NCBI GenBank assembly: GCA_963929805.1
Contig: CAWVLE010000174.1
Location: forward strand, 1-25,855
From: an uncultured Eubacteriales bacterium
Lineage (GTDB): Bacteria > Bacillota > Clostridia > Christensenellales > Aristaeellaceae
Reading direction: 5' to 3'
Length of the DNA stretch: 25,855 bases
Under the pieces are notes generated by a model. It made no database searches. It worked only from the letters and a program-made list of their open reading frames with translations, and had not been told where the DNA came from. Shown piece by piece: positions 9,712 to 25,593 of this stretch (position 1 is the stretch's first letter; each line of letters starts with the position of its first letter). The position numbers and the translations under genes are program-made.

Positions 9712-11126
9712 AGTCTGTTTTCCTCCTTTTTCAGTGCCTTTGCCGCAAACAACGCCGCGCAGCCCAGCGCAAACACGATGCCGGCCGGATAGGCGATATA
9801 CGCCGCCAGGCGGAATCCCTCGTCCGCCATCAGTATGTAGGTTAAGGATACGGCGGACATAAAACACGCCGGCGCGGCGCACAGCAGCGAGTGCCACCGC
9901 CTGGCCCCATTTTTGACCAGATACATGGCCGCCGCCCACAGGGTAATCATGGCCAGGGTCTGGTTGCTCCAGGAAAAGTAGCGCCACACGGTGTTAAAAT
10001 CCACCGTCGTCAGCACGGCGCCCGCCGCCAGCAGCGGAATGGTAACCGCCAGCCGCTTGGGCATGCTGGACTGGTCAATACGCAGCCAGTCGGCGATGGT
10101 CAGCCGGGCGCTGCGAAAGGCGGTATCGCCCGAGGATATCGGGCACACCACCACGCCCACGATGGCCAGCGCGCCGCCGGCTATGCCCAGCAGCGATACG
10201 GAAATTTCATACACCACGCCGGACTGGCCCAGGCTCGTCAGCGCCGCTTGCAATCCGCCCGTGGCCCCGTAAAAGGCCACGCCCGCCGCCGCCCACACCA
10301 GGGCGATTACGCTTTCGGTCAGCATCGCGCCGTAAAATACGCGCCGCCCATCCTTCTCCGTCTTAAGGCAGCGGGCCATCATGGGCGACTGCGTGCCGTG
10401 AAAGCCCGATATCGCGCCGCACGCCACGGTGATAAACATAAAGGGCCATATCGGACGGCCGACGGGGTTTTGATTGACCAGGGAAAGCTCGGGCAGCGTG
10501 TAACCGCCGGCGAGCAACCCCACGACGATGCCGGCCGCCATGATCAGAAGCACCACCCCAAATATGGGGTAGAGCTTGCCGATAACCTTATCAATGGGCA
10601 GCAGGGTGGCCAGCAGATAGTATATCAGGATTACCACGCTCCAAAACCCGGCGTTCATCCAATCGGGCGTAAGGCGGGCGAGCAGCAGCGCCGGGCTGGT
10701 GGTAAACACCGCGCCCAGCAGCACCAGCAGCACCAGCGAAAATATCCGCATCACCTGCTTTGCCGCGCCGCCCAGGTATTTGCCCACGATTTCCGAAATG
10801 GAGGCGCCGTCCAGCCTGAGCGAGATCATGCCGCTCATGTAATCGTGTACCGCGCCGCCCAGAATGGAGCCGAATACGATCCACAAAAACACCACCGGCC
10901 CGAAAACCGCGCCCAGCAGCGCGCCGAAAATCGGGCCCGTGCCCGCGATGTTGAGCAGCTGTATCAAAAACACGCGCCAGGTCTTCATGGGAACATAGTC
11001 CACGCCGTCCGGATGGTCAGTTGCCGGGGTGGGCCTGTCGTCGGGGCGGAACACGCGCTCCACCACCCGTCCATACACGAAATAGCCCGCCACTAAAATC
11101 GCAAGAGCGCACACCAGGGTAATCAC
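9708..11126 (-). CDS. cstA: Carbon starvation CstA-family transporter (short, ~472 aa form)
   Basis: DGVDYVPM, QLLNIAGTGPIFG, GGAVHDY, ACGAISGFHGTQSPMMARC, FYGAM, WRYFSWSNQTLA. GTG 11126 is better spaced from GGGAGGA than ATG 11132. Confidence 0.9.
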   Translation of the reverse strand: MITLVCALAILVAGYFVYGRVVERVFRPDDRPTPATDHPDGVDYVPMKTWRVFLIQLLNIAGTGPIFGALLGAVFGPVVFLWIVFGSILGGAVHDYMSGMISLRLDGASISEIVGKYLGGAAKQVMRIFSLVLLVLLGAVFTTSPALLLARLTPDWMNAGFWSVVILIYYLLATLLPIDKVIGKLYPIFGVVLLIMAAGIVVGLLAGGYTLPELSLVNQNPVGRPIWPFMFITVACGAISGFHGTQSPMMARCLKTEKDGRRVFYGAMLTESVIALVWAAAGVAFYGATGGLQAALTSLGQSGVVYEISVSLLGIAGGALAIVGVVVCPISSGDTAFRSARLTIADWLRIDQSSMPKRLAVTIPLLAAGAVLTTVDFNTVWRYFSWSNQTLAMITLWAAAMYLVKNGARRWHSLLCAAPACFMSAVSLTYILMADEGFRLAAYIAYPAGIVFALGCAALFAAKALKKEENRL

Positions 11127-11190
11127 ATGCATTCCTCCCGTATAAGCTGTTATCCGCTATCTACCCGTTTGCAAGCCCAACCAGCCGGCC

Positions 11191-13194
11191 TTACCAGCCC
11201 TTTTCAATGGTAAGAACGTTAAACCCGTCCGCGTATTCGTAGCGGATCAGGTCCATGGTCTTTTTCACCATAAAGATGCCCAGCCCGCCGATGCCCCGCT
11301 CTTCCGCCGTCAACGTGATATCCGGATCGGGCTTACCGGTGGGGTCATAGGGTCTTCCGTTATCCACAAAGCGCATGGCAACCCGGTTTTCCCGAACTTC
11401 GCAGCCCACGGTGACGGAGGTTGCGCCGCTGTAGCGCGCAATGTTGGAAAATATTTCATCCACGGCTATATTGACCTGAGAGATGATTTTGACCGGCGCG
11501 CCGTTTTGCGTCAGCTCCTGTTCAAAAAATCCGCTCACCTGTTCCATGCTTTCAAGCGCCGGCGCGACGTTGATCTTGCGCATGCCCTTGCCCTGATCGT
11601 CCCTTCTCTTGATGGCGAGCATGGTAATGTCGTCAAACTGAGGCGCCTCGCCCACAAAGCGGTCGATGTCGGCCTTGACGGTGCGCAGCAGCTGTTCCGG
11701 GCCCTCGCCGGGGTAAAGGTTCAGCGCGTTGAGCATGCGCGCGGTGGAGTACAGCACGTTGTCCGCGTTGGTCGCTTCGGCCACGCCGTCGGTATAGATA
11801 AAGAAGGTATCGCCCGGGTTCAGGTTCAGCTCGTATTCCCTGTACCTGGATCCCTCCATGCCGGCCAGCACAAACCCGTGCCTGTCGCGCACCAGTTCAA
11901 ATGCGCCGTCCGCGCGCCGCAGCGCCGGGAATTCGTGCCCCGCGTTGGCGGCGACCATCCGGCCGGTGGAAATTTCGTATATGCCCAGCCACACGGTGAC
12001 AAACATTTCCGCCTCGTTGTTTTCGCACAGCTGGTTGTTTACCTTTTCCAGCACCGCCCTGGGGCTCAGCCCGGTCTGGGCGGCGTTTTTAAGCAGCGTC
12101 TTGGCGATAACCATAAACAGCGCCGCCGGCACGCCCTTGCCGGATACGTCCGCGATGACCAGCGCCAGGTGGTCGTCGTCCACCAGGAAGAAATCGTAAA
12201 AGTCGCCGCCCACTTCCTTGGCGGGGGTCATGGACGCATAGATGTCAAATTCGTGCCGGTCGGGGAACGCCGGATAGATACAGGGTAGCATGTCGGACTG
12301 TATCTTCGCGGCCACGTTAAGCTCCGCGCCGATGCGCTCCTTTTCGGCGGTCACATTGGCCAGATTGCGTATGTAATCGCGCAGTTCCACCGTCATATAT
12401 TGAAAGGCCAACGCCAGTTCTTCCACCTCGTCGCCGGTGTGGATATCCGCGTGGAACTGATCCAGGTTTTCCATTTTGCTTCTGACCAGCGCCTGGGTCG
12501 CCCGGTTCAGCGTGTCAAGCGGCCGGATAAGGATGCGGCGTATGTAGAAATAGCATGCCACCACCGACGCGGCCAGCACCACGCAGGCGATTAAAAGCGT
12601 CATCAACACGAGCTGGCGGATCTGCGCGTTGATCATGTCCATGGAAATATCCACGCTGGCCAGCGCTGCGGGCTGGCCGCTGCTGTCCAAAATGGCCACA
12701 TAGGCGGACGCCAGATAGCCGTATTCCTGGTTGTTGGTAATGAGTATGATCTGCTCGGCGTCCGGGGCAAAGGCGGCGTGCATCAGCTCGTTTCCGCCGC
12801 CATAGTAGGCGTCGGCGTCGCCCAGATCGCACACCCCATCCTCGCCCGGCGTGCCGGCGTCCCAGATGTAATACATCTCATTTTCTTCGGGCACCACCAC
12901 GTAAAAATACCTAAGGTTCATTTCCTGCCTGACCGTCATAAGGTATTGCCGGATTTCTTCGTAATAGGCGTCCTTTTCCCCCGTCGTGTAATAGCGGGCA
13001 ATACTGTCCCCGTCGATAAGGCGGGCCGCGATGCTGGCCTGCTCAAAGGCCAGCCCCGCGTAGTAGTCCTCCATGCGGTTTCGGTACATCCGCGAAAGCG
13101 CCGGCGTCAGCGCGGCCATAAGCAGCGCCGCCATGCCCACCAGCCCCAAAAGCAGTTTGGGTTGCAGGCGCAGGTTCCATCGTGGCTTTTTCAT
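11191..13194 (-). CDS. Membrane sensor PP2C/SpoIIE-type (RsbU-like) phosphatase with HAMP and C-terminal RsbW-like Ser kinase domain
   Basis: Two TM segments around an extracytoplasmic domain. HAMP (PL..L...GDEVEEL). PP2C motifs GGDFYD, IADVSGKG, YTDG, DDITM. C-terminal DEIFSN, DNG, GGLG. Start 13194 overlaps the upstream stop (ATGA). Confidence 0.9.
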   Translation of the reverse strand: MKKPRWNLRLQPKLLLGLVGMAALLMAALTPALSRMYRNRMEDYYAGLAFEQASIAARLIDGDSIARYYTTGEKDAYYEEIRQYLMTVRQEMNLRYFYVVVPEENEMYYIWDAGTPGEDGVCDLGDADAYYGGGNELMHAAFAPDAEQIILITNNQEYGYLASAYVAILDSSGQPAALASVDISMDMINAQIRQLVLMTLLIACVVLAASVVACYFYIRRILIRPLDTLNRATQALVRSKMENLDQFHADIHTGDEVEELALAFQYMTVELRDYIRNLANVTAEKERIGAELNVAAKIQSDMLPCIYPAFPDRHEFDIYASMTPAKEVGGDFYDFFLVDDDHLALVIADVSGKGVPAALFMVIAKTLLKNAAQTGLSPRAVLEKVNNQLCENNEAEMFVTVWLGIYEISTGRMVAANAGHEFPALRRADGAFELVRDRHGFVLAGMEGSRYREYELNLNPGDTFFIYTDGVAEATNADNVLYSTARMLNALNLYPGEGPEQLLRTVKADIDRFVGEAPQFDDITMLAIKRRDDQGKGMRKINVAPALESMEQVSGFFEQELTQNGAPVKIISQVNIAVDEIFSNIARYSGATSVTVGCEVRENRVAMRFVDNGRPYDPTGKPDPDITLTAEERGIGGLGIFMVKKTMDLIRYEYADGFNVLTIEKGW

Positions 13195-14027
13195 CGCGTA
13201 TCCTCCTTTTCCGGCATGGGGCGCACGCACAGGCGCAGGTGGCCGTCCGCCGTGCGGTACAGCCAGCGCCCCTGGGATAGTTGCCGCTCCTGCTCTTCCA
13301 TCTGCGCCGTGCCCGGCGTCAGCGCGGTCACGTAGTACCAGCGCCCGCCCAGCCGCGCCTGGCTTAGGCTGTTATAGCGGCGAAAGACCTGCGCCGCCTG
13401 GGCCGTGGTCTGGCTGTGATCCAGGCTGAGCCGCGCCGTCTCGGGCCGGCGCCAGTAGGGCGTTCGCCCGGCCTGCGGCACGGCCCGCGCCCACGCCCCA
13501 TCCAAATCGCTCATAAGCGTTTCCAGCATGCCGCGGGCAGCGGCGGCGCATTTCAGGTACAAATCGACGCTGTCGGTTTCGCCGGTTATCTCCACGGCGC
13601 GCTGCGCCAGTATGTCCCCGCCGTCCAGGCGGCTGGTCACCTTGTGCATGGTTACGCCCGTAACCCCAAGGCGCCTGTCCATGGCCCCTTCGATCGGGTA
13701 ATAGCTGCGCCCGTCCGGCAAGAGCGAGCTGTGGGTATTGATGCCGCGAAAGTTATCCAGCCCCTCGGGGATGGGCAAAATGCGGTTATACTCGGCGATA
13801 AAAAGCAGGCCGCACCCTTCCCGCCGGAAAAGCCGCTCTATTTCTTCGGGCGCGATGTCCTCGTAGTGCACCGGTATGCCCATCTGCCGGGCGCGGCGGA
13901 CGATGGCGTATTCGGTAAAATAGTCCTCGTCGTTGTGATAGGTATAAAGCGCCAGCACGCGGTGACGTTTTAAAAAATATTCAAAGCAGGATAGAAATAC
14001 GTCCGTGCCAAAATACACGACGTTCAT
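13191..14027 (-). CDS. Formyltransferase (Fmt/ArnA-like N10-formyl-THF-dependent family)
   Basis: INTHSSLLP (catalytic Asn/His), TGVTMH and LDGGDI (catalytic Asp). Start at ATG 14027 after AAGGAAG. Confidence 0.82.
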   Translation of the reverse strand: MNVVYFGTDVFLSCFEYFLKRHRVLALYTYHNDEDYFTEYAIVRRARQMGIPVHYEDIAPEEIERLFRREGCGLLFIAEYNRILPIPEGLDNFRGINTHSSLLPDGRSYYPIEGAMDRRLGVTGVTMHKVTSRLDGGDILAQRAVEITGETDSVDLYLKCAAAARGMLETLMSDLDGAWARAVPQAGRTPYWRRPETARLSLDHSQTTAQAAQVFRRYNSLSQARLGGRWYYVTALTPGTAQMEEQERQLSQGRWLYRTADGHLRLCVRPMPEKEDTR

Positions 14028-14043
14028 CGGTTTGCGCTTCCTT

Positions 14044-15801
14044 TCATATTTTGACACTTAGGACGTTAAAGCCCTGGTAACGCCGGTAGAAAAAAGTCTT
14101 GGCGCGCTGCTTGATAACCAGCACGCCGATGGCGTCCATGCCGCACTGATCCAGATCGTCCATGCGGCGGGTATTGAGGCTGAACGGGTCAAAGGTGACC
14201 GCGTCGTCGCGCATGTGCAGTTCAAAATCCCCGTCGGGCAGCGCGATGGCCGTAATTTGTATATAGCCGTCCGTGCGCCCCGCAAAGCCGCGCTGCAATA
14301 TGGCCATGCCCAGTTCCTCTACCGCCATGGTCACAAAATAGCTCTGGCGCGCGTTGGCATCCCATTTTTCGCAAAAGGCCTCCAGTTCCTGGCTGACCGC
14401 GCCCACGTCCTGCGCGTTGCTGGATACGGTGCGCTGGAATATCCGCTGGGGATCCATATCCTGCGCCTTAAATCGTCCGCTCAGCGCCAGCGCGCCGAAC
14501 GCCGCCAGCGCCAGCGCCTCCGTGGCCGGGAACAGCCACCACACGCCCGACAACCCCAGCCGCGCGCACAGTATGGTTATCGGGAACAAAAGCACGACGC
14601 CCCGCAGCGTCTCAAGCACGAACGAAGCCTTTTCCCGTTCGCACGCCTGATAATAGTTGCACAGCAAAATATTGATGCCCGCAAAAAACGCGCCCAGGCC
14701 GTAAATGCGCAGCGCCTGGAAAGAGAGCGCCTGGGCGGACGCGCCGGTTATGCCAAACAGCATGCACATGCCCATGGGCCAAAGCTCTACCAAAATGATA
14801 AGCAGCCCGCCCACCGCGACGCCGCTTAGAAACCCCAGGCCGGTTATGGCGCGCAGCCCGGTTCGGTTGTGCTCGCCCTGATAGGTGGACAGTATGGGCT
14901 GCATGGCCCGGGCCGTACCCTCGTACAGATACAGTATTAAATAAGAAGTGTTCTGTATCAAATCGAACACGGCCACGCCGGTTTCCCCGCCCATGCGGAT
15001 GAGCAGGTTGTTGCACAGCAGGAAAAAGAACATCTGGTACAGGTATTGCACCGAGGTGGCGAACCCCGCCCTGAGCGCGCGCGCGGCCGGACGCAGCCAG
15101 CCCTTTCCCGGAAAGGACAGCTTGAGCGCGTGGTCGCGCCGGAAAAGGCCCGGCAGATAAATGCCGATGGTGATAATCTGGCCCAGCGCCGTGGAAAGCG
15201 CCGCGCCCCGCGTGCCCATGTCAAGGCCCAGCACAAAAAAGACGTTAAAGGCGATGTCGCACACGTTGCCCACCACCGAGCCCACGCCCGCGCGGCGCTG
15301 GCTGCCGTCGTTGCGCAGGTAGTAGTTAAGCAGGTTGGACAGGTAAAAAAGCGGCGTGGCCGAGATCAGAACCCTGAGATAATCCCGCGTGGCGTCAAAC
15401 AGCGCGCCGTCCCCGGGCGTGGTGCCCAGCAGCTTTAAAAGCGGCGTAAGCCCCAGATTGCCCGCCACGGCGGTAACGCCGCTTATTACCAGCGCCAGCA
15501 GCAAAACCTGGTTAAAGCTTTGCGCGGCCGGGCGGGGCTGGCCCTCGCCCAGCAGCCGGGCGTAGCGCACCGACCCGCCCAGCCCCAATCCATGCGCCAG
15601 CATGCAGTTGGCCATGTACACGGGCAGAATCAGCCCGATGGCGGCCAGCCCTACGGTGCCCAGTTTTTGCCCCACCACGACGGCGTCGGCCATATCGCTA
15701 AGCGCCCAGCCCACGCAGGACGCCATGGCCGGCGCCCATAGCCGCCGGTACATGGGGCCGGTAAACCGGTCCTGCCCCAGGGCCAACCGCAAGTGTGCCA
15801 T
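14044..15801 (-). CDS. MATE-family efflux transporter with C-terminal degenerate RsbW-like (HATPase-fold) domain
   Basis: MATE motifs D..VVGQKLG..GLAAI, GLGLGGS and NIxxNV-type GNVCDIAFNVFFV, with ~12 TM segments. Tail AVEELGMAI...MRDDAVTFDP...IGVLVIK...YQGFNVL. Confidence 0.85.
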   Translation of the reverse strand: MAHLRLALGQDRFTGPMYRRLWAPAMASCVGWALSDMADAVVVGQKLGTVGLAAIGLILPVYMANCMLAHGLGLGGSVRYARLLGEGQPRPAAQSFNQVLLLALVISGVTAVAGNLGLTPLLKLLGTTPGDGALFDATRDYLRVLISATPLFYLSNLLNYYLRNDGSQRRAGVGSVVGNVCDIAFNVFFVLGLDMGTRGAALSTALGQIITIGIYLPGLFRRDHALKLSFPGKGWLRPAARALRAGFATSVQYLYQMFFFLLCNNLLIRMGGETGVAVFDLIQNTSYLILYLYEGTARAMQPILSTYQGEHNRTGLRAITGLGFLSGVAVGGLLIILVELWPMGMCMLFGITGASAQALSFQALRIYGLGAFFAGINILLCNYYQACEREKASFVLETLRGVVLLFPITILCARLGLSGVWWLFPATEALALAAFGALALSGRFKAQDMDPQRIFQRTVSSNAQDVGAVSQELEAFCEKWDANARQSYFVTMAVEELGMAILQRGFAGRTDGYIQITAIALPDGDFELHMRDDAVTFDPFSLNTRRMDDLDQCGMDAIGVLVIKQRAKTFFYRRYQGFNVLSVKI

Positions 15802-15829
15802 AGACCGTTTCCCTCTTTCCATCCGCAGC

Positions 15830-17002
15830 TTAGTCCCCTATATCGCTGTGGCCCTGTTCAAACTCCCATTGCAGGCCGTATTTATCGATAAAGTAAAAAT
15901 ACTTCACCTGGCTGAGTATGCGGGCCGTTTCCGCGTTGCGCTCGTCGCTGTGGCGCACGTCCTGGTCAAAGAAGCGCACCTGCGAGGGCTGGGTTTTGCT
16001 GATCTGGAAAACCCGGTATTGATCCGACTGGTTTATCAGCCGGGTATCGGGCATGGATTTTACATGCGCGAAAGCCTCCTCGATATTGGTCACCTTCAGC
16101 GCCACATGCCGCGCGCCGCTTACGTCGTTGGCGGCAAAGAACACCGGCTGTTTACGCCCTTCGGGGTAGTGGTACTGCATAAGCTCCAGCGTCAGTTTGG
16201 TCCCGGGCACGTTGACAAACGCGATGGACACGTCGCCCTTTTCGGCCTCGTCCAAAAACCCCGCGGCCCTGAAAAAGCCCGGATTTTTCCAGTGCGGCAA
16301 ATAGTGGTCGGGCACGACGCCCAGCAGCGTCCGGTAATAGTCTATCGCCGTTTTCATCTCGTCCACAAATATGCAGATATGGGAAAGCCCGGTAAACCTG
16401 GGCATGGCGGCCTGGGCGGGCTGCGCAAAGCGCTTTTTAACGGTCAGTTCCACCCCGCCGGGGTTTACCGAAACCACGATATCGTCCGCCATGGCGGTTA
16501 GAATGGATTTTTCCACGCCCTCCAGTTCCACTTCCCTTTCCGCCGCCGGGAGGCTGTTCTGATAGGCGACGAGCGACCATACCTGCGCCGTGCCAAGACC
16601 TGCGTCGTGGATAAAACCGGGCATCATGGGCGCGTAATAATCCGCGTCCTCCACGCGGGAAAGTATGCCCGCGATCAGCGCGCCGATGCGGTTTTTCAAT
16701 CCCCTGGGCGCGTTGGAGCCGGATTTGGAAAGCTCGGCAAACGCGCTTTTTGCGGCCGGTTCCACCGGCGCGGCCGCGCTAAGATGCAGCTGGCAGTCCC
16801 CGCCTTCCCATTCCATCCAGAATTTTCCCGTGCAGTTTTTCAAAATATCCATGGTCATGGATATCGTTTCCTCGGTCAACAGGCGCATCAGGTTGGTCTG
16901 TTCCCGGTTAAGCGACGCCTGCTGGGAGGCGCGCTCCACCTCGCCAAGCGCCTCCACGGCGCAGGACAGGCTGTTGGATAAGGTAACCACATTTGATTTC
17001 AC
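15830..17002 (-). CDS. Fusion: N-terminal RsbW-like/unknown domain plus C-terminal VOC (glyoxalase/methylmalonyl-CoA-epimerase-like) domain
   Basis: The VOC part has the four typical metal ligands (SHICI, LELMQY, RHVAL, WEFEQ). The N-part has RLLTEE...FWMEW...ELTVKK. GTG start at 17002 after GGAGGA. Confidence 0.7.
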   Translation of the reverse strand: MKSNVVTLSNSLSCAVEALGEVERASQQASLNREQTNLMRLLTEETISMTMDILKNCTGKFWMEWEGGDCQLHLSAAAPVEPAAKSAFAELSKSGSNAPRGLKNRIGALIAGILSRVEDADYYAPMMPGFIHDAGLGTAQVWSLVAYQNSLPAAEREVELEGVEKSILTAMADDIVVSVNPGGVELTVKKRFAQPAQAAMPRFTGLSHICIFVDEMKTAIDYYRTLLGVVPDHYLPHWKNPGFFRAAGFLDEAEKGDVSIAFVNVPGTKLTLELMQYHYPEGRKQPVFFAANDVSGARHVALKVTNIEEAFAHVKSMPDTRLINQSDQYRVFQISKTQPSQVRFFDQDVRHSDERNAETARILSQVKYFYFIDKYGLQWEFEQGHSDIGD

Positions 17003-17015
17003 GAAGTATGTCCTC

Positions 17016-17312
17016 CTAAGCGATGGTAAGAATATCGACAAAGCCCGTTACTTCAAAGACCTCCATGATGGTTTCATTTACATTGCAAACCTTCATTTTG
17101 CCCTGCTTGTTCATGGTCTTCTGGGCCGCAAGGATAACGCGCAGCCCCGCCGAGGAAAGGTATTCCAACTTTTCAAAGTCCAGCGTCAAATCGGTCACGC
17201 CCGGCAGCGAATTTTTAATTTCAGCCTCAAACTGGGGCGCGGTGGTGGTGTCCAGACGTCCTTCCAAGGCGATCGTCAAAGCGGATCCTTGCGTGGTTTT
17301 ATTAATGTTCAT
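17016..17312 (-). CDS. STAS-domain anti-sigma-factor antagonist (RsbV/SpoIIAA-like)
   Basis: 98 aa with LEGRLDTTTAP, LDFEKLEYLSSAGLRV (phosphoacceptor Ser region) and VFEVTGF. AGGAGGG RBS. Confidence 0.93.
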   Translation of the reverse strand: MNINKTTQGSALTIALEGRLDTTTAPQFEAEIKNSLPGVTDLTLDFEKLEYLSSAGLRVILAAQKTMNKQGKMKVCNVNETIMEVFEVTGFVDILTIA

Positions 17313-17382
17313 GCGATACCCTCCTACGAAAAATTATAAAATACAATTCGCTAAACAGCCCCCGCATACCTGCATGGCCGCG

Positions 17383-20300
17383 CTAAAAAACCACGTTTAC
17401 CGCGTTGACCCCGTCTAAGTAGGCGTGCGTGCAGCTTCTTGTGCGCGCGCAGGCCAGCCTCACGCTCAACTCGTCGCCCTGGGTAAGCGGGTCAAAGGGC
17501 GCGCCCTGCCAGCGGATTGTGGCCTCGCACTCGCTGCCGTCCTCGCGGCACGCCGCGTCGAAGCTCACCGTCCAGTCGCCGCTCTCGGGCAGCGCGGGCA
17601 GTATGACCGACACGCACAGTTCCTCAAATATCTGCTGATACTTAAGCGACTGGCCCGCGCTTAAAAGTTGCCTGCGGGCAAAGGCGTCGATCTGCGAAGC
17701 CGTGCCGATAAAGTCAAATTCCCTGGAACGGATGTCCACATGGAAGGTCTTCAGGCGGTGTACAAAGGCGCGGCAACGGTCGGTCCTGGGCGCTTCAAAC
17801 ACCTGGCCGGGCGTGCCCTCTTCATAGATGACGCCCTGATCCATGTAAAACACGCGCGAGGACACGTCGCGGGCAAACTTCATCTCGTGGGTGACGATGA
17901 GCATGGTCAACCCCTGCCCGGCCAGGCGGCGTATGACCGAAAGCACCTCGCCCACCATGGTGGGATCCAGCGCGGAGGTAGGCTCGTCAAAGAGCACGAT
18001 CTCCGGATCCATGGCCAGCGTGCGCGCGATGGCCACGCGCTGTTTCTGGCCGCCGGACAGTTCGTCGGGGTAATTCAGGGCCTTTTCGGCCAGGCCCACG
18101 CTCTGCAAAAGTTCCATGCCGCGCCGGTACGCATCCGGGCGGCCAACGCCCAGCAATTCCACCGGGGCCAGCATGATGTTTTCGATCACCGTCAGGTGGG
18201 GCAGCAGGTTAAACGACTGAAACACCATGCCCATCCGGCGGCGAATGGCGCAAAGTTCCTGCCCCTTCGCCCCGGTAATCTTCTGGCCCAGCACGCGTAT
18301 TTCGCCCTCGGTGGGCTCCTCCAGCCGGTTCAGGCAGCGCAGCAAAGTGCTCTTGCCGGTGCCGGAAGGCCCGATGATGGAGATCACCTCGCCCCGCTTT
18401 ATCCGGGCGTTTACGTCCTGCAGGGGCGTAATGTTGGGGTAAACCTTTTTAAGGCGCTCAATTTCTATAACCGTTTCGCCGCTTTGCGCATGCTCCGCCA
18501 TCCGGGGCTGCGCCGCGGCGGGGCTCTGGCCTTCAATTCCCTTGGGCTGCCTTGCGCGGCGCTTGGGGTCTATGCGCCTGTCCAGTATGCCAAGCAAAGC
18601 GGTAAGTCCCCAAGCCAACAAAAAGTAAATAATCGCCGTTGAGATCAGGGGAAAGAACGCCTCGAACGTGCGGCTGCGGATCAGGTCGGTGGCCCGGGTC
18701 AGATCCTCCACGGCGATGTAGCCCACCACCGAGGTCATCTTGACCATGGAGATCAGCTCGCCCTTGTACACCGGCAGGATATGGCGCGCGGCCTGGGGCG
18801 CGATCACCTTGACGAAGGCGCCCACGCGGCCAAAGCCCAAAGCGGCGCCCGCTTCCCACTGGCCGCGGTCCACCGCGTCGATTCCGGTGCGGATCATTTC
18901 GGACACGTATACCCCGAAGTTGATGGAGAAGGCGACGATGGCCACCACGATTCCGCTAAGCAGCGTGCTGGCAAACACCACGTAGAACAGCACCATCAGC
19001 AGCACCAGCAGCGGCACGCCCTGAATCAACCGGATAAAGACCGCGGCAACGCCCGCGACCACGCGGTTGCGGCTGCGGCGCACCATGCACAGCCCAAAGC
19101 CCAGCACGCTGCCCGCGAGCGCGGAGCATATGGATATGACGATGGTAACCCACAGCCCGGACAGCACCATCTGCCACCGGTTTTCCTGGATAAAGGTTTT
19201 GTTGAAGCTTTCAACCAGCCCGGCAAAAAAGCCGGTTTCCTCCGCCTGCACCGTCATGCCCAGGTCTTCCGCGCGGGTGACGAGCACCACGCCGCCGGTA
19301 TAGTGGGCGGCGGCAAAGTCGATGCTTTCCGCGCGCTCGGGCGTAATGCTGATGGAGCCGGATATTATGTCCGTGCGGCCGCTGATGAGCATGGGCAGCA
19401 GCGCGTTAAAATTGGCCTGCGTAATTTCCAGTTCCATGCCCAGCTCTTTGGCGATCATCGTCACCAGTTCTACCTCGTAGCCCATGGACTGGCCGCCTTC
19501 TCCGCAATAGCTCATCGGCTCCAGCGAGGGGTCGTGCGTATAGCGCAGCGTGCCGTTGGGCGCGTCGTATTCGCCGGCGTCAATGGTCTTTACGCTTTCA
19601 TCCGCGCCCATCCACTTTTCTTCCAGGGCGGCCAGCGTGCCGTCGGATTGATATTTTTTGATGATGGCGCTTACCTGGCCGGTAAGCGGGCTGCCCTTGG
19701 CAAGCCCCAGCCCATAGCTGTCCGCGGCGACCACTTCGGAAAAGATGGCCAGGTTGCTCTGCCGCGCGACGGCCAGGCGGGCCAGCGGCATGTCGGTTAT
19801 CGCCGCGTCCACCAGCCCGTTTTGCAGCGCCAGCAGCTGGGCGGACATGTCGTCGTAGTACTGAAAGTCTATGCCGCTGACCACGCCGCTTAGAATTTGA
19901 TCGTGACTCGATCCGGTTATGGCGCCCACTTTTGTGCCCGCAAAATCGCTGAGCGTTTTAAAACGCGCCGCGGCGGAAGCGGTGTTTTTCACCACCGCCA
20001 CAATGCCGCCGTAATAATCCGGATCCGAAAAATATATGCGTTCGGCGCGCTCCTCGGTCACGGTAAAGCCGGCGGCCCCCATGTCGTATTTGCCCGCCTC
20101 CACGCCGGCGATAAAGGAGGCGACTTCCACATTATGGATTTGCAGCCCATAGCCGTAGGCCTGACAAAACCGGATCGCGATATCCACGTCGTAGCCCACG
20201 GTCTGGTTATCCTTTATATAAGCAAAGGGCGCGCTGCCGACCTTGGCCGCAAAATTCACCGTGCCGTTTACGTCGTCCAGCGCCGTCCAATCCGCCACTA

Positions 20301-20778
20301 CCTTAAGGCTTTCGTCGTCGCCAAACCAGATACGCTCAATTTCTTCCAGCGTGCCGTCGGATTCGATCCGGGAAAGAAATTCGTTCATCTGGTCGCGCAG
20401 CAGCGCGCCTTTTTCATTTTTGGGAAATGCGAACGCATAGCCGTCCTGGGTCAGGTATTCCGGAAGATAGGTAACCGCGCTGTTTTCCACGCACAGCACG
20501 CGAGCCATGGGTTCGTCCATTAAAAAGGCGTCTATCCGCCCCTGCTCCACGGCAAGCGCCATGTCCGCGTAGGCGCTATAGTATTCCTTTTTTGCGTTTG
20601 GAAAAAACTCGTCCGTATACTGGTCAAAGGTGGAGCCGGCCATTACCCCGATGCGCCGGCCGTCCAGTTGATTAAGGGCGGTAATGGCGGCGCTTTCCGC
20701 GCAGCCGGCCGCCGCCAGCGCCAGCATTGCCAAAACGCATAAAATCGCGACTCGCCTGATTGCTTTAAGGTAGCGCAT
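17383..20778 (-). CDS. Single-chain polar amino-acid ABC transporter: lipoprotein signal, tandem family-3 binding domains, HisM-type permease, GlnQ-type ATPase, C-terminal RsbW-like tail
   Basis: Lipobox LAAAGC. Two sets of SBP3 motifs (IGV..GS, VDA...D, IT.ER). Permease IQGVPLL and EAGAALG. Walker [32 protein letters not shown]. Tail EELC...GAPFDP...YLDGVN. Confidence 0.9.
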
Positions 20779-20787
20779 ATCTTGCGT

Positions 20788-22404
20788 TCACTCCCTGCAC
20801 AAAACTTCCCGATCCAACATGCCCAATTTGTTCGCCGCAAGCGTCAATTCCGATTGCAGGCAGGATATACCGCACGCGGTCATAAAAAAATCCAGGATTA
20901 CGTTGCCCGCGACGGCTACCCCAACGGCCTGCGCGGGAATGCCCAGCTGGGTCAGCAGCACGGTATAGCAGGTCAGGCTTCCACCCGGAATGGGCGGGGC
21001 CGCGATGGCCAGCAATCCGGAAGCCAGCACCCCGGTAACGACCCAGGTTGGGGAGACGGCCACGCCGTAAAACTCCGCCAGCCCCAGGGCCAGCATGAAA
21101 AAGCCTATCGCGGCGCCGGTTTTGAATATCACCTGGCCCAGCGGCACGGCAAAATTCGCCACGCGCCCGCTGACGCCCAGCTGCCGCTGGCAAACCTCCA
21201 GATTGGTTGACAGCACGGCGGCGGAAGACGCGGTGGACAGCGCGATCAGATAAGTTGGCAGCAGTTTGCGCAGCAGCACGGGAAAGGAAACCCCAAGCCG
21301 CAAAGCCGCCGCCAGCGCGTATATTAGCGGCCAGAATATTAACGCGGCTATGGCCAGCGATATTCCCTTGACGATCCCGTATAGATTGCCCGCCGCGCCG
21401 GAAAGCGCCAGCGAAAGCAGGCTCACGAAAACCAGAACCGGGACGTACCGGCTTACCGTCTCCATTATAAACTGAATGAGCGCGTTTGCCTGACCCACCA
21501 GGCGGCGTATGGCCTGCGTCTTATCGCCCAGCACCAGTATCGCCAGCCCCATGCAAACCGCCATAAAAATAATTTTCAGCGAATTTCCGTCCAAAAAGGG
21601 AGAGATCAGGTTTTCCGGAATCACGTCAAGGATCATACCGTAAATCTGAGCCGCGGCGTTCGTCCCCATCTGCGCCGCCTCGCCCGCCGGGTGAAACAAC
21701 CATATCATGCCCAGCGCCGTCAAGCCGGTCACGGCAAAAATGGCGATCAGAAAACGGGCAAGCACCGTGCGCGCGATCTTTCCCAGCGCCTGTACATCCC
21801 CGATGCTGACCACGCCCCAGCACACGCCCAAAAAGATCATGGGCCCGGCCAGGCACTGTAAAACGCCCATCATGGCGTCAAAAAGCGGGTCGGTCAACCC
21901 GGCGGCCACCGTGCGCGCCGGCTGAGGAAGTAGCGTAAAAAGCAGTCCGCACAGCCCCGCGGCCCCAATAGAGGCCAATAGCTTAACAACCGAGTTTAGC
22001 CGCTGGGGCTTGGGCGGGTACAGCGCCAGGCAATTATTCCCATCCTGATAGCTGTACACCGGGCAAAGCCCCGCCTGGGCCAGCAGATTGGAATAGAGCG
22101 GCGCGTCCGATTGACCTTCGTCCATCTCGGCCGGATCCATTCGCTCGCCCGGCGCCAGTATTTCCACATACATTCTTCCAAACCGAGTGCCGGAGCGAAA
22201 CAGGCATTCGCTTTCAACCGCCATGTGGGATTGCCATAGCGCCAGCACATCCTCGATAGCCAACCGAAGCCTTAGCCTGTCTTTGCGGTCCACGCCCGCC
22301 TGTTCAAGCGCACCGGTCAGCAATTCGGAAATCCGATCGATCCCGGCCGCGTCCAGCAAAACTTTCTCCCGGTACTTTTTTAGCGTTTTATCTTTTGCCG
22401 CCAT
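20788..22404 (-). CDS. Dicarboxylate/amino acid:cation symporter (DAACS/SDF) with ~130 aa N-terminal extra domain
   Basis: HP1 STASSAA, HP2-region APPIPGG, TM8-region DFFMTAC. Soluble N-terminal extension with RLRLAIED...GERMDP...YSYQDGNN. Confidence 0.85.
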   Translation of the reverse strand: MAAKDKTLKKYREKVLLDAAGIDRISELLTGALEQAGVDRKDRLRLRLAIEDVLALWQSHMAVESECLFRSGTRFGRMYVEILAPGERMDPAEMDEGQSDAPLYSNLLAQAGLCPVYSYQDGNNCLALYPPKPQRLNSVVKLLASIGAAGLCGLLFTLLPQPARTVAAGLTDPLFDAMMGVLQCLAGPMIFLGVCWGVVSIGDVQALGKIARTVLARFLIAIFAVTGLTALGMIWLFHPAGEAAQMGTNAAAQIYGMILDVIPENLISPFLDGNSLKIIFMAVCMGLAILVLGDKTQAIRRLVGQANALIQFIMETVSRYVPVLVFVSLLSLALSGAAGNLYGIVKGISLAIAALIFWPLIYALAAALRLGVSFPVLLRKLLPTYLIALSTASSAAVLSTNLEVCQRQLGVSGRVANFAVPLGQVIFKTGAAIGFFMLALGLAEFYGVAVSPTWVVTGVLASGLLAIAAPPIPGGSLTCYTVLLTQLGIPAQAVGVAVAGNVILDFFMTACGISCLQSELTLAANKLGMLDREVLCRE

Positions 22405-22420
22405 AATTTGTGCTTCTTTC

Positions 22421-22618
22421 TCATTTCAAAATGCCGCGGTCGCGCGCCAACGCCTCGACGCTGCGGTCATAGGTCGCCTCGGCTTCCTTTGAAAAGAAGC
22501 AGCCCGGCACCCCTTCGTTATGGTCCCGATGGTGCGCCACGCAGGCGCAGCATTTGCCATGCCGCGGGCAATCGTACGTGCAAGGACAATCCCGCTTGTT
22601 GTCGCATTGTTGCTGCAT
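22421..22618 (-). CDS. Small Cys/His-rich protein (DUF6485-like)
   Basis: CPCTYDCPRHGKCCACVAHH...PGCFF...YDRS pattern, in operon context with a GAGGTG RBS. Confidence 0.7.
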   Translation of the reverse strand: MQQQCDNKRDCPCTYDCPRHGKCCACVAHHRDHNEGVPGCFFSKEAEATYDRSVEALARDRGILK

Positions 22619-22639
22619 GTTTATGCACCTCTTATGTAT

Positions 22640-23356
22640 TTAATTATTTTCTTCTAGCCACCCGACAAACTCCTGGGTGGAATATGTAAAGGCGGCTTGC
22701 GTATTTGCCGCGTCCATCACCAGAAATTCGGTTAGCCCGTAATCCGAATCCCCGCCGCCCCAGTCGTAAGTATAGCCCAGCCGGGTCCAGGGGTACTCGC
22801 TTTCAAAATACGAATAAATTATGTTCGCGTCAAACCAGGCCTTATATTCCGCGTCGTCCACCAGCGCGTAATCGTTTTCCATCTGAGCCGTCACGCCGGT
22901 AACGTAAGCGGGCCGGATCACGTCCTGCGGGCAGACCCAAAAGGCGGTAAAATGGGTGTAGCCACAGTCCTCGGGCAAGCCCAGCAATTGCGCAAAGCGC
23001 AGATCCCAATCCTCGACGCCGGAGGCGTTTTCGCCGTACCAGTTTTCCATTTCGCCCAGCGACGTGGCCCATATCTCATCCTTTTTCAGGGCGTCGCCCG
23101 GCTTAACATCCTGCTCGCCGTCGTGCCAGGTAATAAGCAGCGCCCGCTCGCCGGATTCGTCCCAAATCACCTGCGGATCGTCCTGCGTCAGGCATACCAG
23201 TTCCATTACCTCGTCCTGATGGCTGAGCGCGGCGTCCTCCACCGCCGCCGTCCACATCTGCTCAAGCTCCGCTTCCTGCGCGCAGGCGCAGCCAAGCGTC
23301 AGACACATACACAGCGCGGCGCACAGGCCAACCGTCAATCGTTTTTTACCAGTCAT
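22640..23356 (-). CDS. Exported/lipoprotein-like conserved hypothetical protein
   Basis: Signal peptide (MTGKKRLTVGLCAALCMCLTLGC). Conserved-looking motifs QLLGLP, RPAY and YPWTRLGYTYDW...YGLTEF. First gene of the minus-strand cluster. Confidence 0.7.
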   Translation of the reverse strand: MTGKKRLTVGLCAALCMCLTLGCACAQEAELEQMWTAAVEDAALSHQDEVMELVCLTQDDPQVIWDESGERALLITWHDGEQDVKPGDALKKDEIWATSLGEMENWYGENASGVEDWDLRFAQLLGLPEDCGYTHFTAFWVCPQDVIRPAYVTGVTAQMENDYALVDDAEYKAWFDANIIYSYFESEYPWTRLGYTYDWGGGDSDYGLTEFLVMDAANTQAAFTYSTQEFVGWLEENN

Positions 23357-23460
23357 TTCATCAACGCCCCTTTTACCCAAGTTACGCCTTGCCGTGCCCG
23401 GCGCGTTGCATTTGGCTAACCGATACGGATAATTTACAGCGCCCGGTCCAAATTATATAC

Positions 23461-23588: not shown

Positions 23589-24332
23589 ATGTTAAAAATT
23601 GCGCTCTGCGACGACGATCTGCGTCATTTGGATAAAATTAACGAATTGTTGCGCGCTTATCTTCAAGCGCGCCCCTCGTTGTCGGGAAAGGTATTTCAAT
23701 TTGAAAGCGGCGCGTCCATGCTCAATTACATAAATGACAACGAGTGTTTCGATCTGTATATTCTGGATATCCTCATGCCGGAGATAGACGGCATACAGAC
23801 CGGGCGCCGGCTGCGCGATTTGGGATGTGGAGGCGAGATCATCTTTTTGACCACCTCCAACGAATTTGCCTCCGACAGCTATGAGGTGCGCGCCTTTTTC
23901 TATCTGTTGAAACCGGTGGATAAAGCCCGGCTTTTTTCCGTGCTGGATCAGGCGATTGAAAAGCTAAACCAGCGCCGGACCGAAGCGATTATGATCAGCA
24001 CGCCGGACGGGCCCCGGCGCATACTGCTGGAGAACATCCGGTATGTAGAGCGCGCGAACCGCGTCATGCGTTACCACTGCACCGACGGGATCGTGGATTC
24101 CAGCACCATTCGCATACCGTTTGGAAAAATGGCCGCCCCCCTTTTGGCGGATTCGCGCTTTTACCTGGGTGGGGCCAGCTTTGTGCTCAACTTTCAGCAT
24201 GTTGCCGGCGTAGACGGACAGACCGTGCTGCTCGACAGCGGCGAAGCCGTGACGCTCCCGCGGACGGTGGCCGGGCCCTTTAAGCAGGCCTGGGGCAAGT
24301 ATTGGCTGGAGGAAAGTACGTATGGCGTTTGA
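23589..24332 (+). CDS. LytTR-family response regulator (AgrA-like)
   Basis: Receiver CDDD, ILDILMP (phospho-Asp), IIFLT, YLLKP. C-terminal LytTR domain IRYVE...ASFVLNFQHV. AGGGAG RBS. Confidence 0.92.
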   Translation: MLKIALCDDDLRHLDKINELLRAYLQARPSLSGKVFQFESGASMLNYINDNECFDLYILDILMPEIDGIQTGRRLRDLGCGGEIIFLTTSNEFASDSYEVRAFFYLLKPVDKARLFSVLDQAIEKLNQRRTEAIMISTPDGPRRILLENIRYVERANRVMRYHCTDGIVDSSTIRIPFGKMAAPLLADSRFYLGGASFVLNFQHVAGVDGQTVLLDSGEAVTLPRTVAGPFKQAWGKYWLEESTYGV

Positions 24333-25593
24333 CTGGTTTAACACGGTAAACTTTCTGTTGACCGAGTGCTTTCTGGGCGGCTATATAATGCTGATGATCG
24401 ATTTGCGCGCGCCTGCGCGTCGCTGGCGCGCGCGCTGGCTGGCCCTGATACTCGCGCTGGTTGGGTTGCACGGCGGGCTGATTTTTTTTGGAAAATTTTC
24501 TCTGTACACGCGCTTTAGCGTGCTTATGCTGGTAATTCCCTATACGTTTGCAACGGTATGGTGTTCCCGCGCCCCGGGCTGGGTGACCGCTTTTGCCGTG
24601 GCCAACGGCTTTTTTATCGGCTGCATCGGCGGCCTTAACGGATATGCCATCCAGCTTGCCCTGCCCTCGCTTCCCTACGCGGCGCTTGTGGCGCGGATGG
24701 CGTCGTTTATACTGCTGTTTTTCGTAATGCGCCGGTTCAGGCGCACTTACCGGCAAATGGTCCGGCAGTTGGAATTTGGCTGGCCCGTGTTGACCATGAT
24801 TCCCTTTTTTGCCTGCGCATCGGTTATGTACGTCAAAGCCGCGCTGTTTCCCACCGAGCCCGTACTCGCGACGCTGATCATGTACAGCCTGCTTTTGACA
24901 TGCAGTTTCGCCTATTACCTTATGTTTCTGTTCTTTGAACGCGTGCAGAAGGAAAACGACGCCCAGCACAACAAACAGCTGCTGGAGGTGCAGATATCCG
25001 CCCTGCAAAGCCGCATAGAAGCGGTAGGCACGGCGGAAAACGCGCTGCGCATGGAGCGGCACGATCTGCGCCACCGCCTGCAAACGGCAGCGGCGCTGGT
25101 CTGCCGGGATGATAAGGCGGCCGCCCTCAAGTTTTTGGACGAGGCGCAGACGCGCCTGGACGAGCAGAAGCTGACGCGTTGGTGCGGCCCTGCGATACTG
25201 GACGCGATGTTTTCCTCGTATCTTGGCCAGGCGCAGTTGCAGGGGATACAGGTAGACGCGCGCATTTCCCTGCCCGATCCGCTCCCGGTCGACGAAGGGG
25301 AGCTGGCCATCGTGCTGGCCAACGCCCTGGACAACGCCATTCACGCGTGTATGAAGCTGGCCGCAGATATGCGCCATATCCGCTGCAAGGTTATTTCAAA
25401 GCCCCGTCTCATGCTGGAAATCGCCAACTCATGCGACGGCAGCGCCACCTTTGACGCGGACGGTCTGCCCGTGCCGGACCATGCGGGGCATGGGATGGGC
25501 GCCCAGTCCATCTTGGCGTTTTGCAAAAAATACAACGCCACGTGTCAATTCAATCTGGCAGGGAACCGGTTTTCCCTGATCGTCGTGCTTTAA
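24322..25593 (+). CDS. AgrC-like membrane sensor histidine kinase (GHKL)
   Basis: Multi-TM N-terminus, H-box RHDLRH, N-box LANALDNAIHA, EIANS, HGMG. Overlaps the regulator stop. Confidence 0.9.
   Translation: MAFDWFNTVNFLLTECFLGGYIMLMIDLRAPARRWRARWLALILALVGLHGGLIFFGKFSLYTRFSVLMLVIPYTFATVWCSRAPGWVTAFAVANGFFIGCIGGLNGYAIQLALPSLPYAALVARMASFILLFFVMRRFRRTYRQMVRQLEFGWPVLTMIPFFACASVMYVKAALFPTEPVLATLIMYSLLLTCSFAYYLMFLFFERVQKENDAQHNKQLLEVQISALQSRIEAVGTAENALRMERHDLRHRLQTAAALVCRDDKAAALKFLDEAQTRLDEQKLTRWCGPAILDAMFSSYLGQAQLQGIQVDARISLPDPLPVDEGELAIVLANALDNAIHACMKLAADMRHIRCKVISKPRLMLEIANSCDGSATFDADGLPVPDHAGHGMGAQSILAFCKKYNATCQFNLAGNRFSLIVVL

Follow-up and report, generated by a model that had tools for sequence, protein, structure and literature searches.

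An operon without a sigma factor in which kinase-derived domains on transporters and an enzyme probably read a STAS protein

Introduction

What does a partner-switching system control when it comes without a sigma factor? Partner switching is the textbook mode of controlling sigma factors, and a few systems are known in which the target of the STAS protein is instead a free enzyme or regulator. The question is raised by a stretch of 25,855 nucleotides (nt) from an uncultured Eubacteriales bacterium of the family Aristaeellaceae (assembly GCA_963929805.1, contig CAWVLE010000174.1, positions 1 to 25,855), the whole of which is called the window here. Nine co-oriented genes with gaps or overlaps of 0-70 nt were found on its minus strand from 23380 to 11191; they encode, among others, a stand-alone STAS protein, a membrane-bound PP2C phosphatase, two importers, an exporter and an enzyme. 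An earlier note, made from the letters of this DNA, had read the genes as a partner switch in which catalytically dead RsbW-like domains are fused to transporters and an enzyme. Here, the extra domains, the STAS protein and their relatives in other genomes were analysed to see how far this interpretation holds.

The genes that carry the system

The open reading frame (ORF) calls recovered the nine genes and their spacing as the note had given them, the STAS protein among them, and all five extra domains claimed for the PP2C, MATE, VOC, ABC and DAACS proteins were found in place. An RsbW/SpoIIAB-type GHKL domain is called W in the following, a dead copy fused to a cargo protein W', and the family of the N-terminal domain of the VOC-type protein V. 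The genes and domains concerned are, in the order of the operon:

20788-22404, minus strand: DAACS/SDF-family cation symporter of 538 amino acids (aa) with an N-terminal W' (Pfam SDF, E 6e-56, residues 149-513)
22015-22359, minus strand: W' domain of the symporter, residues 16-130 (AlphaFold2 model, Foldseek, hhalign)
17383-20778, minus strand: single-chain ABC importer of the polar-amino-acid type, 1131 aa, with a C-terminal W' (Pfam SBP_bac_3, BPD_transp_1 and ABC_tran)
17395-17757, minus strand: W' domain of the ABC importer, residues 1008-1128, with the invariant helix KYQQIFEEL (alignment, hhalign, predicted STAS interface)
17016-17312, minus strand: stand-alone STAS protein of 98 aa (Pfam STAS, E 4e-16; NCBIfam anti-sigma factor antagonist above the cut-off)
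15830-17041, minus strand, with a probable GTG start at 17002: V domain plus VOC/glyoxalase-fold enzyme, 403 aa (Pfam Glyoxalase, E 4e-7, residues 219-329)
16427-17002, minus strand: V domain, residues 14-205 (AlphaFold2 model, Foldseek)
about 16055-16387, minus strand: VOC domain of the same protein (Pfam Glyoxalase)
14044-15822, minus strand: MATE exporter of 592 aa with a C-terminal dead W' (Pfam MatE, E 1.5e-31, and HATPase_c_2)
14053-14448, minus strand: W' domain of the exporter, residues 459-590 (motif alignment, hhalign)
11191-13230, minus strand, with an alternative ATG start at 13194: membrane sensor of 679 aa with two transmembrane segments, HAMP, PP2C and kinase domain (Pfam SpoIIE, E 1e-51; HATPase_c_2; HAMP, E 8e-5)
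about 12376-12543, minus strand: HAMP domain of the sensor (Pfam)
about 11605-12180, minus strand: PP2C/SpoIIE phosphatase of the sensor (Pfam)
11197-11583, minus strand: kinase-competent W domain of the sensor, residues 550-678 (alignment of 78 W domains; Pfam)

The ABC importer carries three SBP_bac_3 stretches, a permease, an ATPase and the W' in one chain, and its best NCBIfam matches are ATPases of the GlnQ/EhuA/TcyN type. Relatives are either ~890 or ~1130 aa long, depending on how many binding domains they have.

Fold of the extra domains

Above the curated cut-off, Pfam HATPase_c_2 matched only the C-termini of the PP2C protein (E 3e-17) and of the MATE exporter (E 2e-6); the ABC C-terminus reached E 0.011, and the isolated DAACS and VOC N-domains gave no Pfam match even at E 10. 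No match for the DAACS or the ABC domain was obtained among the sequences of the PDB with single-sequence and profile hidden Markov models (HMMs), and pairwise BLAST among the five extra domains returned two weak links. When two shallow alignments, A1 and A2 (A2 being that of the ABC W'), were compared by hhalign, the score was 68% over 42 columns, and broader class alignments were needed. With these class profiles, the MATE W' matched the STAS-linked kinase clade with 99% (E 3e-18), the ABC W' with 96.5% (E 1e-9) and the DAACS W' with 97.1% (E 5e-11); an unrelated N-terminal domain, used as negative control, stayed below 1%. Iterative HMM searches of ~7000 ORFs from 73 loci converged on the same 70-79 proteins, regardless of whether they were started from the PP2C-kinase domain, the MATE domain, the DAACS alignment or the ABC alignment. 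An AlphaFold2 model of the DAACS W' (pLDDT 80, alignment of 26 homologues) was compared with solved structures by Foldseek and gave 17 matches with E <= 0.001, all of them RsbW, SpoIIAB or UsfX, the mycobacterial anti-sigma-F (best E 2e-5, template modelling (TM) scores 0.53-0.70). Structures of the Rsb and SpoII partner switches (6m36/6m37, 1th8/1tid) are among those matched by the models of the DAACS W' and of V. The pattern said to be shared by the extra domains was visible in the alignments as an EE/ED helix, then (F/Y/M/V)(D/E/N)P, then a terminal Y.DG.N strand. Judged by these three independent lines (class profiles, iterative searches and structure), which agree with one another, the ABC, DAACS and MATE extra domains are RsbW/SpoIIAB-like and homologous to the kinase clade; profile-profile comparison and Foldseek thus gave for the isolated domains the fold that had been proposed, with V as the weaker case.

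The domains are well conserved. Identity amounts to 62-82% over 92 homologues for the ABC W', with 29 invariant positions, and to 53-64% over 100 homologues for the DAACS W', where the word-indexed searches (DAACS, ABC, V-VOC) gave relatives of at least 53% identity only. The N-terminal extension of the DAACS protein is carried by 101 homologues.

One kinase and four pseudokinases

An alignment of 78 W domains was used to compare the catalytic motifs. The stand-alone W proteins (~135 aa) and all PP2C-fused copies retain the N-box (D/E)E(I/L)F.N, the D.G.P(Y/F)(D/N)P box and the GGLG lid. This includes the PP2C-fused W of the window (N-box DEIFSN, DNG, lid GIGGLG), which is the only copy there with ATP-binding motifs. 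Every one of the cargo-fused copies, on MATE, ABC, ABC-ATPase-only and DAACS proteins, has lost the N-box Asn, the lid or both, and the ABC and DAACS types have lost the adenine-binding Asp as well. The window's MATE W' has an Ala in place of the N-box Asn and no GGxG, its ABC W' lacks the N-box Asn, the DxG Asp and the lid, and its V copy has lost the N-box Asn, DxG and lid. An acidic pair on the N-box helix (EE, ED or DE) is retained in all classes including V. Because their ATP-binding motifs are lost, the MATE, ABC, DAACS and V copies are regarded as pseudokinases, as the earlier note had suspected. The metal-binding motifs of the PP2C phosphatase (GGDFYD, DVSGKG, TDG and DDIT) are legible in the translation of the sensor and intact. 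By its motifs, the window therefore holds one kinase-competent domain, on the same chain as the opposing phosphatase, and four pseudokinases.

The STAS protein and its predicted docking on the ABC importer

The predicted phospho-acceptor of the STAS protein is Ser54 in YLSSAGLRV; it is kept in 78 of 78 family members, and the family motif Y(I/L)SSAGLRV is almost invariant. Members share 58-77% identity; 200 of the 400 genomes sampled from the bacterial family have at least one, and up to 12 copies occur in a genome.

Complex prediction covered one of the five STAS-domain pairs, the STAS protein with the isolated ABC W'. Three runs each gave an interface score (ipSAE) of 0.80, whereas every one of the three controls stayed at 0.00; in the calibration of the prediction tool, 58 of 80 solved complexes and 2 of 110 mismatched pairs attained 0.80. 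The confidently predicted interface comprises residues 21-23, 51, 53-55, 57-58 and 81-89 of the STAS protein, a set that covers the phospho-serine loop and helix 3; on the side of the W' it comprises the helix of the N-box region (Q49, Q50, E53, E54) and the helix after the missing lid. The four named W' residues are invariant, and Y51, S53-A55, L57 and R58 of the STAS protein are kept in 76-78 of the 78 members. RsbV and SpoIIAA dock, when unphosphorylated, on the ATP-pocket face of the GHKL domain. The W' interface is presumably this same face that SpoIIAB offers to SpoIIAA, as read from the W alignment. The STAS phospho-serine loop is predicted to dock on the ABC W' helix; in this model, a phosphate on Ser54 would sit in the interface, which fits a phosphorylation-sensitive contact. 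Modelling had been suggested for the STAS protein with each of the domains, and it gave a high-scoring predicted complex for the one pair that it covered.

The V family

For the AlphaFold2 model of V (pLDDT 83), the five best solved structures in Foldseek are SpoIIAB (E 3.5e-3 to 2.4e-2). The TM score to SpoIIAB is 0.64 when normalised to the target and 0.47 when normalised to the query, the latter being low because a helical insert of ~60 residues stands in place of the ATP lid. The V profile matched the MATE-type domain in hhalign with 92% over the N-terminal 72 columns, half its length, and the kinase clade with 12%. Hence the VOC N-domain, named before as the weakest match, is indeed the weakest. 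V is best described as a separate SpoIIAB-like pseudokinase family and not as a plain RsbW copy, with weaker support than for W'. The family has 1308 clusters at 50% identity in the representative library, 478 of them at E <= 1e-30, and no Pfam model.

Relatives carry V mostly as a stand-alone gene of ~200 aa adjoining STAS, and some proteins of 400-430 aa are V-V tandems. Stand-alone V is the commonest neighbour of STAS (29 of 68 STAS genes), and the fusion of V to VOC recurs in P0206, P0208 and L011. The commonest form of the module in the relatives (L013-L072) is a stand-alone triad of kinase W (~135 aa), STAS (98 aa) and V (~200 aa), as in L046 (8590-9950) and L072 (7869-8920). Compared with the order rsbV-rsbW-sigB, V occupies the place of the sigma gene. 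That V is itself a sigma factor, sitting at the position of sigB, was ruled out, since there was no match to a sigma domain and the fold search led to SpoIIAB.

Neighbourhoods in related genomes

The neighbourhood sample consisted of 60 loci around top-scoring STAS matches, with ORFs from a simple script. A W or V gene was found at most four genes away on the same strand for 65 of 68 stand-alone STAS genes (62 loci); a kinase-type W, stand-alone or PP2C-fused, lay near 41 of the 68, and a pseudo type (V or cargo-fused W') near 49. PP2C genes were present in 26 loci. Of 27 related PP2C genes, 14 include the kinase in the same reading frame, whereas the kinase of the other 13 is encoded by a gene of its own next door, and the sensor domains of the encoded proteins vary (HAMP, dCache-HAMP, 5TM-LYT). 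Six sigma-like ORFs were found in ~1.1 Mb of related loci, and such an ORF stood beside STAS in one of ~65 loci. This sole exception is L019 (8528-11123, plus strand), where a gene for a sigma factor like those of the extracytoplasmic function group (163 aa) lies 25 nt upstream of STAS, followed by MATE-W'. The survey that the earlier note had called for therefore places STAS beside W or V and hardly ever beside a sigma gene.

The cargo recurs: MATE-W' was found in 15 loci, ABC ATPase-W' (~365-390 aa) in 12, and DAACS-W' and the full ABC-W' in six each. The window looks like two recurrent cassettes joined together, DAACS-ABC-STAS, which is found in G279, G302 and Intestinimonas, and STAS-transferase-MATE-PP2C-kinase, which is found in L021, L023, L035, L052, L054 and L056. 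The closest relatives of the DAACS and ABC proteins are Intestinimonas proteins. The profile of the ABC-type W' occurs in 70 of 400 genomes of the family, and 69 of these 70 are STAS-positive, against a background of 200 in 400; elsewhere in the phylum it is sporadic (6 of 300 genomes, five other families). An ABC ATPase of 453 aa that follows STAS-V pairs in four loci was considered as a further fusion to W or V but ruled out, since hhalign gave less than 1% and its N-terminus is a membrane domain.

Some loci showed other arrangements of STAS. In L021, L024, L035, L036 and L060, the stand-alone STAS has as neighbour a larger protein (391-448 aa) whose N-terminal part is a further STAS of this family. 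Three STAS copies lie within 8 kb in L033 (G294:C88:33000-52000), each with its own W partner, namely MATE-W', an ABC-type W' fragment, and a PP2C plus stand-alone kinase. The slot upstream of STAS that is taken by DAACS/ABC holds in L011 (2072-3903, plus strand) a PAS-Rce1-like (CPBP) membrane protease and a TMEM164-family protein, and a gene for an L-lactate-dehydrogenase-like protein follows STAS in L011 and L010.

Sigma factors and other STAS genes of the genome

The genome is represented by an 82%-complete assembly of 323 contigs with 12 matches to the sigma-70 family. A profile search of the window's contig gave no match to Sigma70_r2, and the absence of a sigma factor noted for the window extends to the contig. 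Two STAS genes were found in this assembly, that of the window and one in a spoIIAA-spoIIAB-sigF operon on contig C175; the latter was ruled out as an explanation of the window's system, since it belongs to spoIIAA-spoIIAB-sigF. The W and V profiles, run against the whole genome, match the proteins of the window's operon only and not SpoIIAB. Another GHKL protein (142 aa) is encoded on contig C228 (L075 2528-4721, plus strand), directly upstream of an [FeFe]-hydrogenase-like protein with extra Fe-S motifs and preceded by an ORF of 146 aa that belongs to no family; the cluster looks like a sensory-hydrogenase signalling cluster.

Proposed mechanism and alternatives

We consider it probable that the operon encodes a sigma-less partner-switching module in which pseudokinase domains, as parts of the target proteins, serve as readers. 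The membrane sensor would toggle between kinase and phosphatase and so set the phosphorylation of STAS. The Ser53/Ser54 loop and helix 3 of unphosphorylated STAS would make contact with W' and V at the conserved face of their EE helix, and phospho-STAS would be unable to bind there. Docking would most likely free the transporter or enzyme from an inhibitory contact with its W', in analogy to RsbV displacing sigma-B from RsbW, although inhibition by docking is conceivable as well. A single external signal could then adjust the import of amino acids, efflux and one enzyme in a matter of seconds and without transcription. DAACS proteins have their N-terminus, and MATE proteins their C-terminus, in the cytoplasm, so all W' sites would be reachable. 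The regulatory domains of MetN and MalK act from a position after the ATPase, which is where the W' of the ABC importer is placed. Fold, motifs, docking of the ABC pair and neighbourhoods together lend computational support to the partner switch that had been proposed.

Plausibly, and this we put forward more tentatively, the role of the protein is wider: one conserved phospho-STAS may be a diffusible protein second messenger that is read by W' and V receivers across this family of gut Clostridia, giving a post-translational transport regulon that bypasses transcription. The receivers may be free or part of ABC importers, DAACS symporters, MATE exporters, ABC ATPases and enzymes, and they may lie beside STAS or elsewhere in the genome. 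Many fusions are distant from STAS and, therefore, the STAS protein would also act in trans if it is the partner of such fusions.

The direction of signalling could also be the reverse. The transporters would then be the sensors, their W' binding STAS or letting it go as the transport cycle or the substrate load changes, in the style of trigger transporters, and the freed STAS would control something else, be it the V-VOC enzyme, the stand-alone V of relatives or the PP2C-kinase itself. The predicted complex is compatible with either direction, one STAS per five binding domains suits sequestration, a W' on a nutrient importer would be a natural sensor, and stand-alone V could be the actual output, since it is found beside STAS more often than anything else. 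We nevertheless regard this as unlikely: the membrane sensor, with its extracytoplasmic domain and HAMP, is already there as a dedicated input, and so diverse a cargo (MATE exporter, ABC ATPases, DAACS, VOC) is more readily understood as a set of outputs.

Several observations weigh against a module with built-in readers. Binding is a matter of model confidence, and the model was trained on data that include complexes of the RsbV-RsbW kind (with no PDB sequence match for the ABC domain itself); for the MATE, DAACS and V domains, docking is an extrapolation from the ABC pair. The genomes of the neighbourhood sample are related and not independent. Fusions away from STAS, which the earlier note had named as a sign against its interpretation, do exist: DAACS fusions stand apart in L004 and L008, and many genes for a nucleotide-binding domain (NBD) with W' lie on other contigs. 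On this point, the expectation of a STAS neighbour does not hold for every locus, although 69 of 70 genomes with the ABC-type W' carry STAS. The DAACS-ABC-STAS-VOC core of Intestinimonas has no PP2C or kinase nearby, and the VOC protein there is without V. Finally, contig C162 (L074 2719-3931, minus strand) encodes a HATPase_c_2 protein of 139 aa, of which the N-terminal half alone matches Pfam, next to a group-3 sigma factor of 263 aa, with no STAS alongside; a sigma output in trans via this anti-sigma-like/sigma pair is possible.

The fusions away from STAS and the C162 pair could also be taken to mean that W' and V do not read STAS at all. They would be ordinary regulatory or dimerisation modules, and the STAS/PP2C-kinase would serve a target in trans such as the C162 pair. 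The pair without adjoining STAS, in a genome with two STAS genes found, and the fusions distant from any STAS gene would be explained in this way, but the almost complete co-occurrence of STAS with the ABC-type W', the position of STAS beside W or V and hardly ever beside a sigma gene, the closer relationship of W' to the STAS-linked kinase clade than to SpoIIAB and a predicted interface on invariant residues of both partners all speak against it and make this view quite improbable. That the dead domains are functionless remnants of gene fusions, as the loss of all catalytic motifs might suggest, is hardly credible in view of the conservation of the ABC and DAACS W' given above, which suggests purifying selection, and of fusions that recur in many genera.

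Comparison with known systems

How does a module with pseudokinase readers compare with characterised systems? The RsbU-RsbV-RsbW-SigB and SpoIIE-SpoIIAA-SpoIIAB-SigF switches of Bacillus have, like the window, a PP2C phosphatase, a STAS phospho-serine and an RsbW-type GHKL serine kinase. Unlike these, the window has no sigma factor, its kinase is fused to the phosphatase, and the presumed partners of STAS are four dead GHKL domains on transporters and an enzyme. Since the defining sigma target is missing, the system does not belong to the RsbUVW-SigB class and is not a member of the sigma-regulating partner switches.

HsbR-HsbA of Pseudomonas aeruginosa, SypE-SypA of Vibrio fischeri (PMC10120452) and Rv1364c of Mycobacterium tuberculosis (PDB 3ke6, also met in the Foldseek search with the DAACS W') resemble the window in that phosphatase and kinase for one STAS are united in one chain and the outputs are not classical sigma release. 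Their input is a receiver domain or another module, whereas the sensor of the window has two transmembrane segments and HAMP, and their STAS acts on free proteins (FlgM, HsbD or as yet unknown ones), with no pseudokinase domains fused to the targets. In SiaABCD of P. aeruginosa, much as is proposed for the window, a small protein binds an enzyme and controls it post-translationally, and its phosphorylation depends on a HAMP-PP2C membrane phosphatase and a GHKL kinase. The best NCBIfam match of the window's PP2C protein is SiaA, below the threshold, and the SiaB-SiaC structure (PDB 6kko) is among the Foldseek matches of the DAACS W' and V models. SiaC, however, binds the diguanylate cyclase directly, whereas the window's targets, mainly transporters, carry their own kinase-derived docking domain.

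A STAS fold physically tied to a transporter, as is predicted for the window, is known from MlaB-MlaF of the Mla ABC transporter and from the STAS domains of SulP/SLC26 proteins (PMC8256260). These are constitutive subunits or fused domains that bind the ATPase or permease directly, whereas the STAS of the window is free and its anti-sigma-like partner is on the transporter. The complex prediction, made with the isolated W', puts STAS on this domain instead of the NBD. To our knowledge, switching of MlaB or SLC26 STAS modules by a PP2C/kinase pair is not known. The C2/NIL domain of MetN and the regulatory domain of MalK, which interacts with EIIA-Glc, follow the NBD like the ABC W', at a site where closure of the ATPase dimer can be controlled. 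They bind a metabolite or a component of the phosphotransferase system, whereas the ABC W' is a GHKL-derived fold whose presumed ligand is a phospho-regulated protein.

Among the systems compared (Rsb/SpoII, HsbR/SypE/Rv1364c, SiaABCD and MlaB), none has kinase-derived pseudokinase domains built into its targets. The literature searched in full text, which included a 2021 review of STAS-only proteins and left most subscription journals outside its scope, gave no description of kinase-derived domains fused to transporters; within this scope, no characterised system with such an output was found, in line with the earlier note.

If the proposed mechanism is true, the likely targets identify themselves, each bearing a dead kinase copy as docking site, and a new signal-output domain could be recognised from sequence alone. 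Two sizeable unannotated families, of which V alone has ~1300 clusters at 50% identity, would gain a regulatory role, and abundant gut and rumen Clostridia could retune uptake and efflux of amino acids within seconds. Ser54 of the STAS protein (variants S54A and S54D) offers a testable handle on transporters without known regulation.

Further genes of the operon and its surroundings

In three genes of the nine and in the next gene downstream no extra domain of the W or V type was found:

22640-23380, minus strand: protein of 246 aa with a lipoprotein-like leader, first gene of the string
22421-22618, minus strand: Cys-rich ORF of 65 aa, the ninth gene counted in the operon
13191-14057, minus strand: formyltransferase-like protein of 288 aa (Pfam Formyl_trans_N, E 4.5e-14)
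9708-11132, minus strand: CstA-family transporter, 58 nt downstream of the PP2C gene (Pfam CstA, E 7e-58), no W domain detected

Neither the 246-aa protein nor the Cys-rich ORF (CPCTYDCPRHGKCCACV) has a Pfam or NCBIfam match. Homologues of the former (237-244 aa) are encoded in L001, L004, L010 and L011, and its position upstream of a DAACS or STAS cassette is conserved in the relatives; counterparts of the latter (65-66 aa) occupy the same place in L001, L010 and L011. The lipoprotein-like gene of ~240 aa and the Cys-rich ORF always head the cassette, with DAACS or other cargo next (window 22421-23380, minus strand; L001 9046-9983; L010 2268-3214; L011 1096-2057). The formyltransferase-like protein has NCBIfam matches below the cut-off only, and the slot between STAS and the MATE-PP2C pair is held by an acyl- or formyltransferase in the relatives L021, L035 and L023.

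CstA comes next after the PP2C-kinase gene in L013 and L015 as well and stands between a stand-alone kinase and DAACS in L007. The CstA gene of the window, which lies beyond the coordinates of the earlier note, probably belongs to the unit, and since further co-oriented transporter genes run on to ~5955, the transcription unit may extend beyond the nine genes. Promoter and terminator scans of the window gave nothing above shuffled expectation. Divergent from the start of the operon, at 23589-25593 on the plus strand, lie genes for a response regulator (with the receiver domain as its only Pfam match) and a histidine-kinase-like membrane protein, a pair that could control transcription of the operon.

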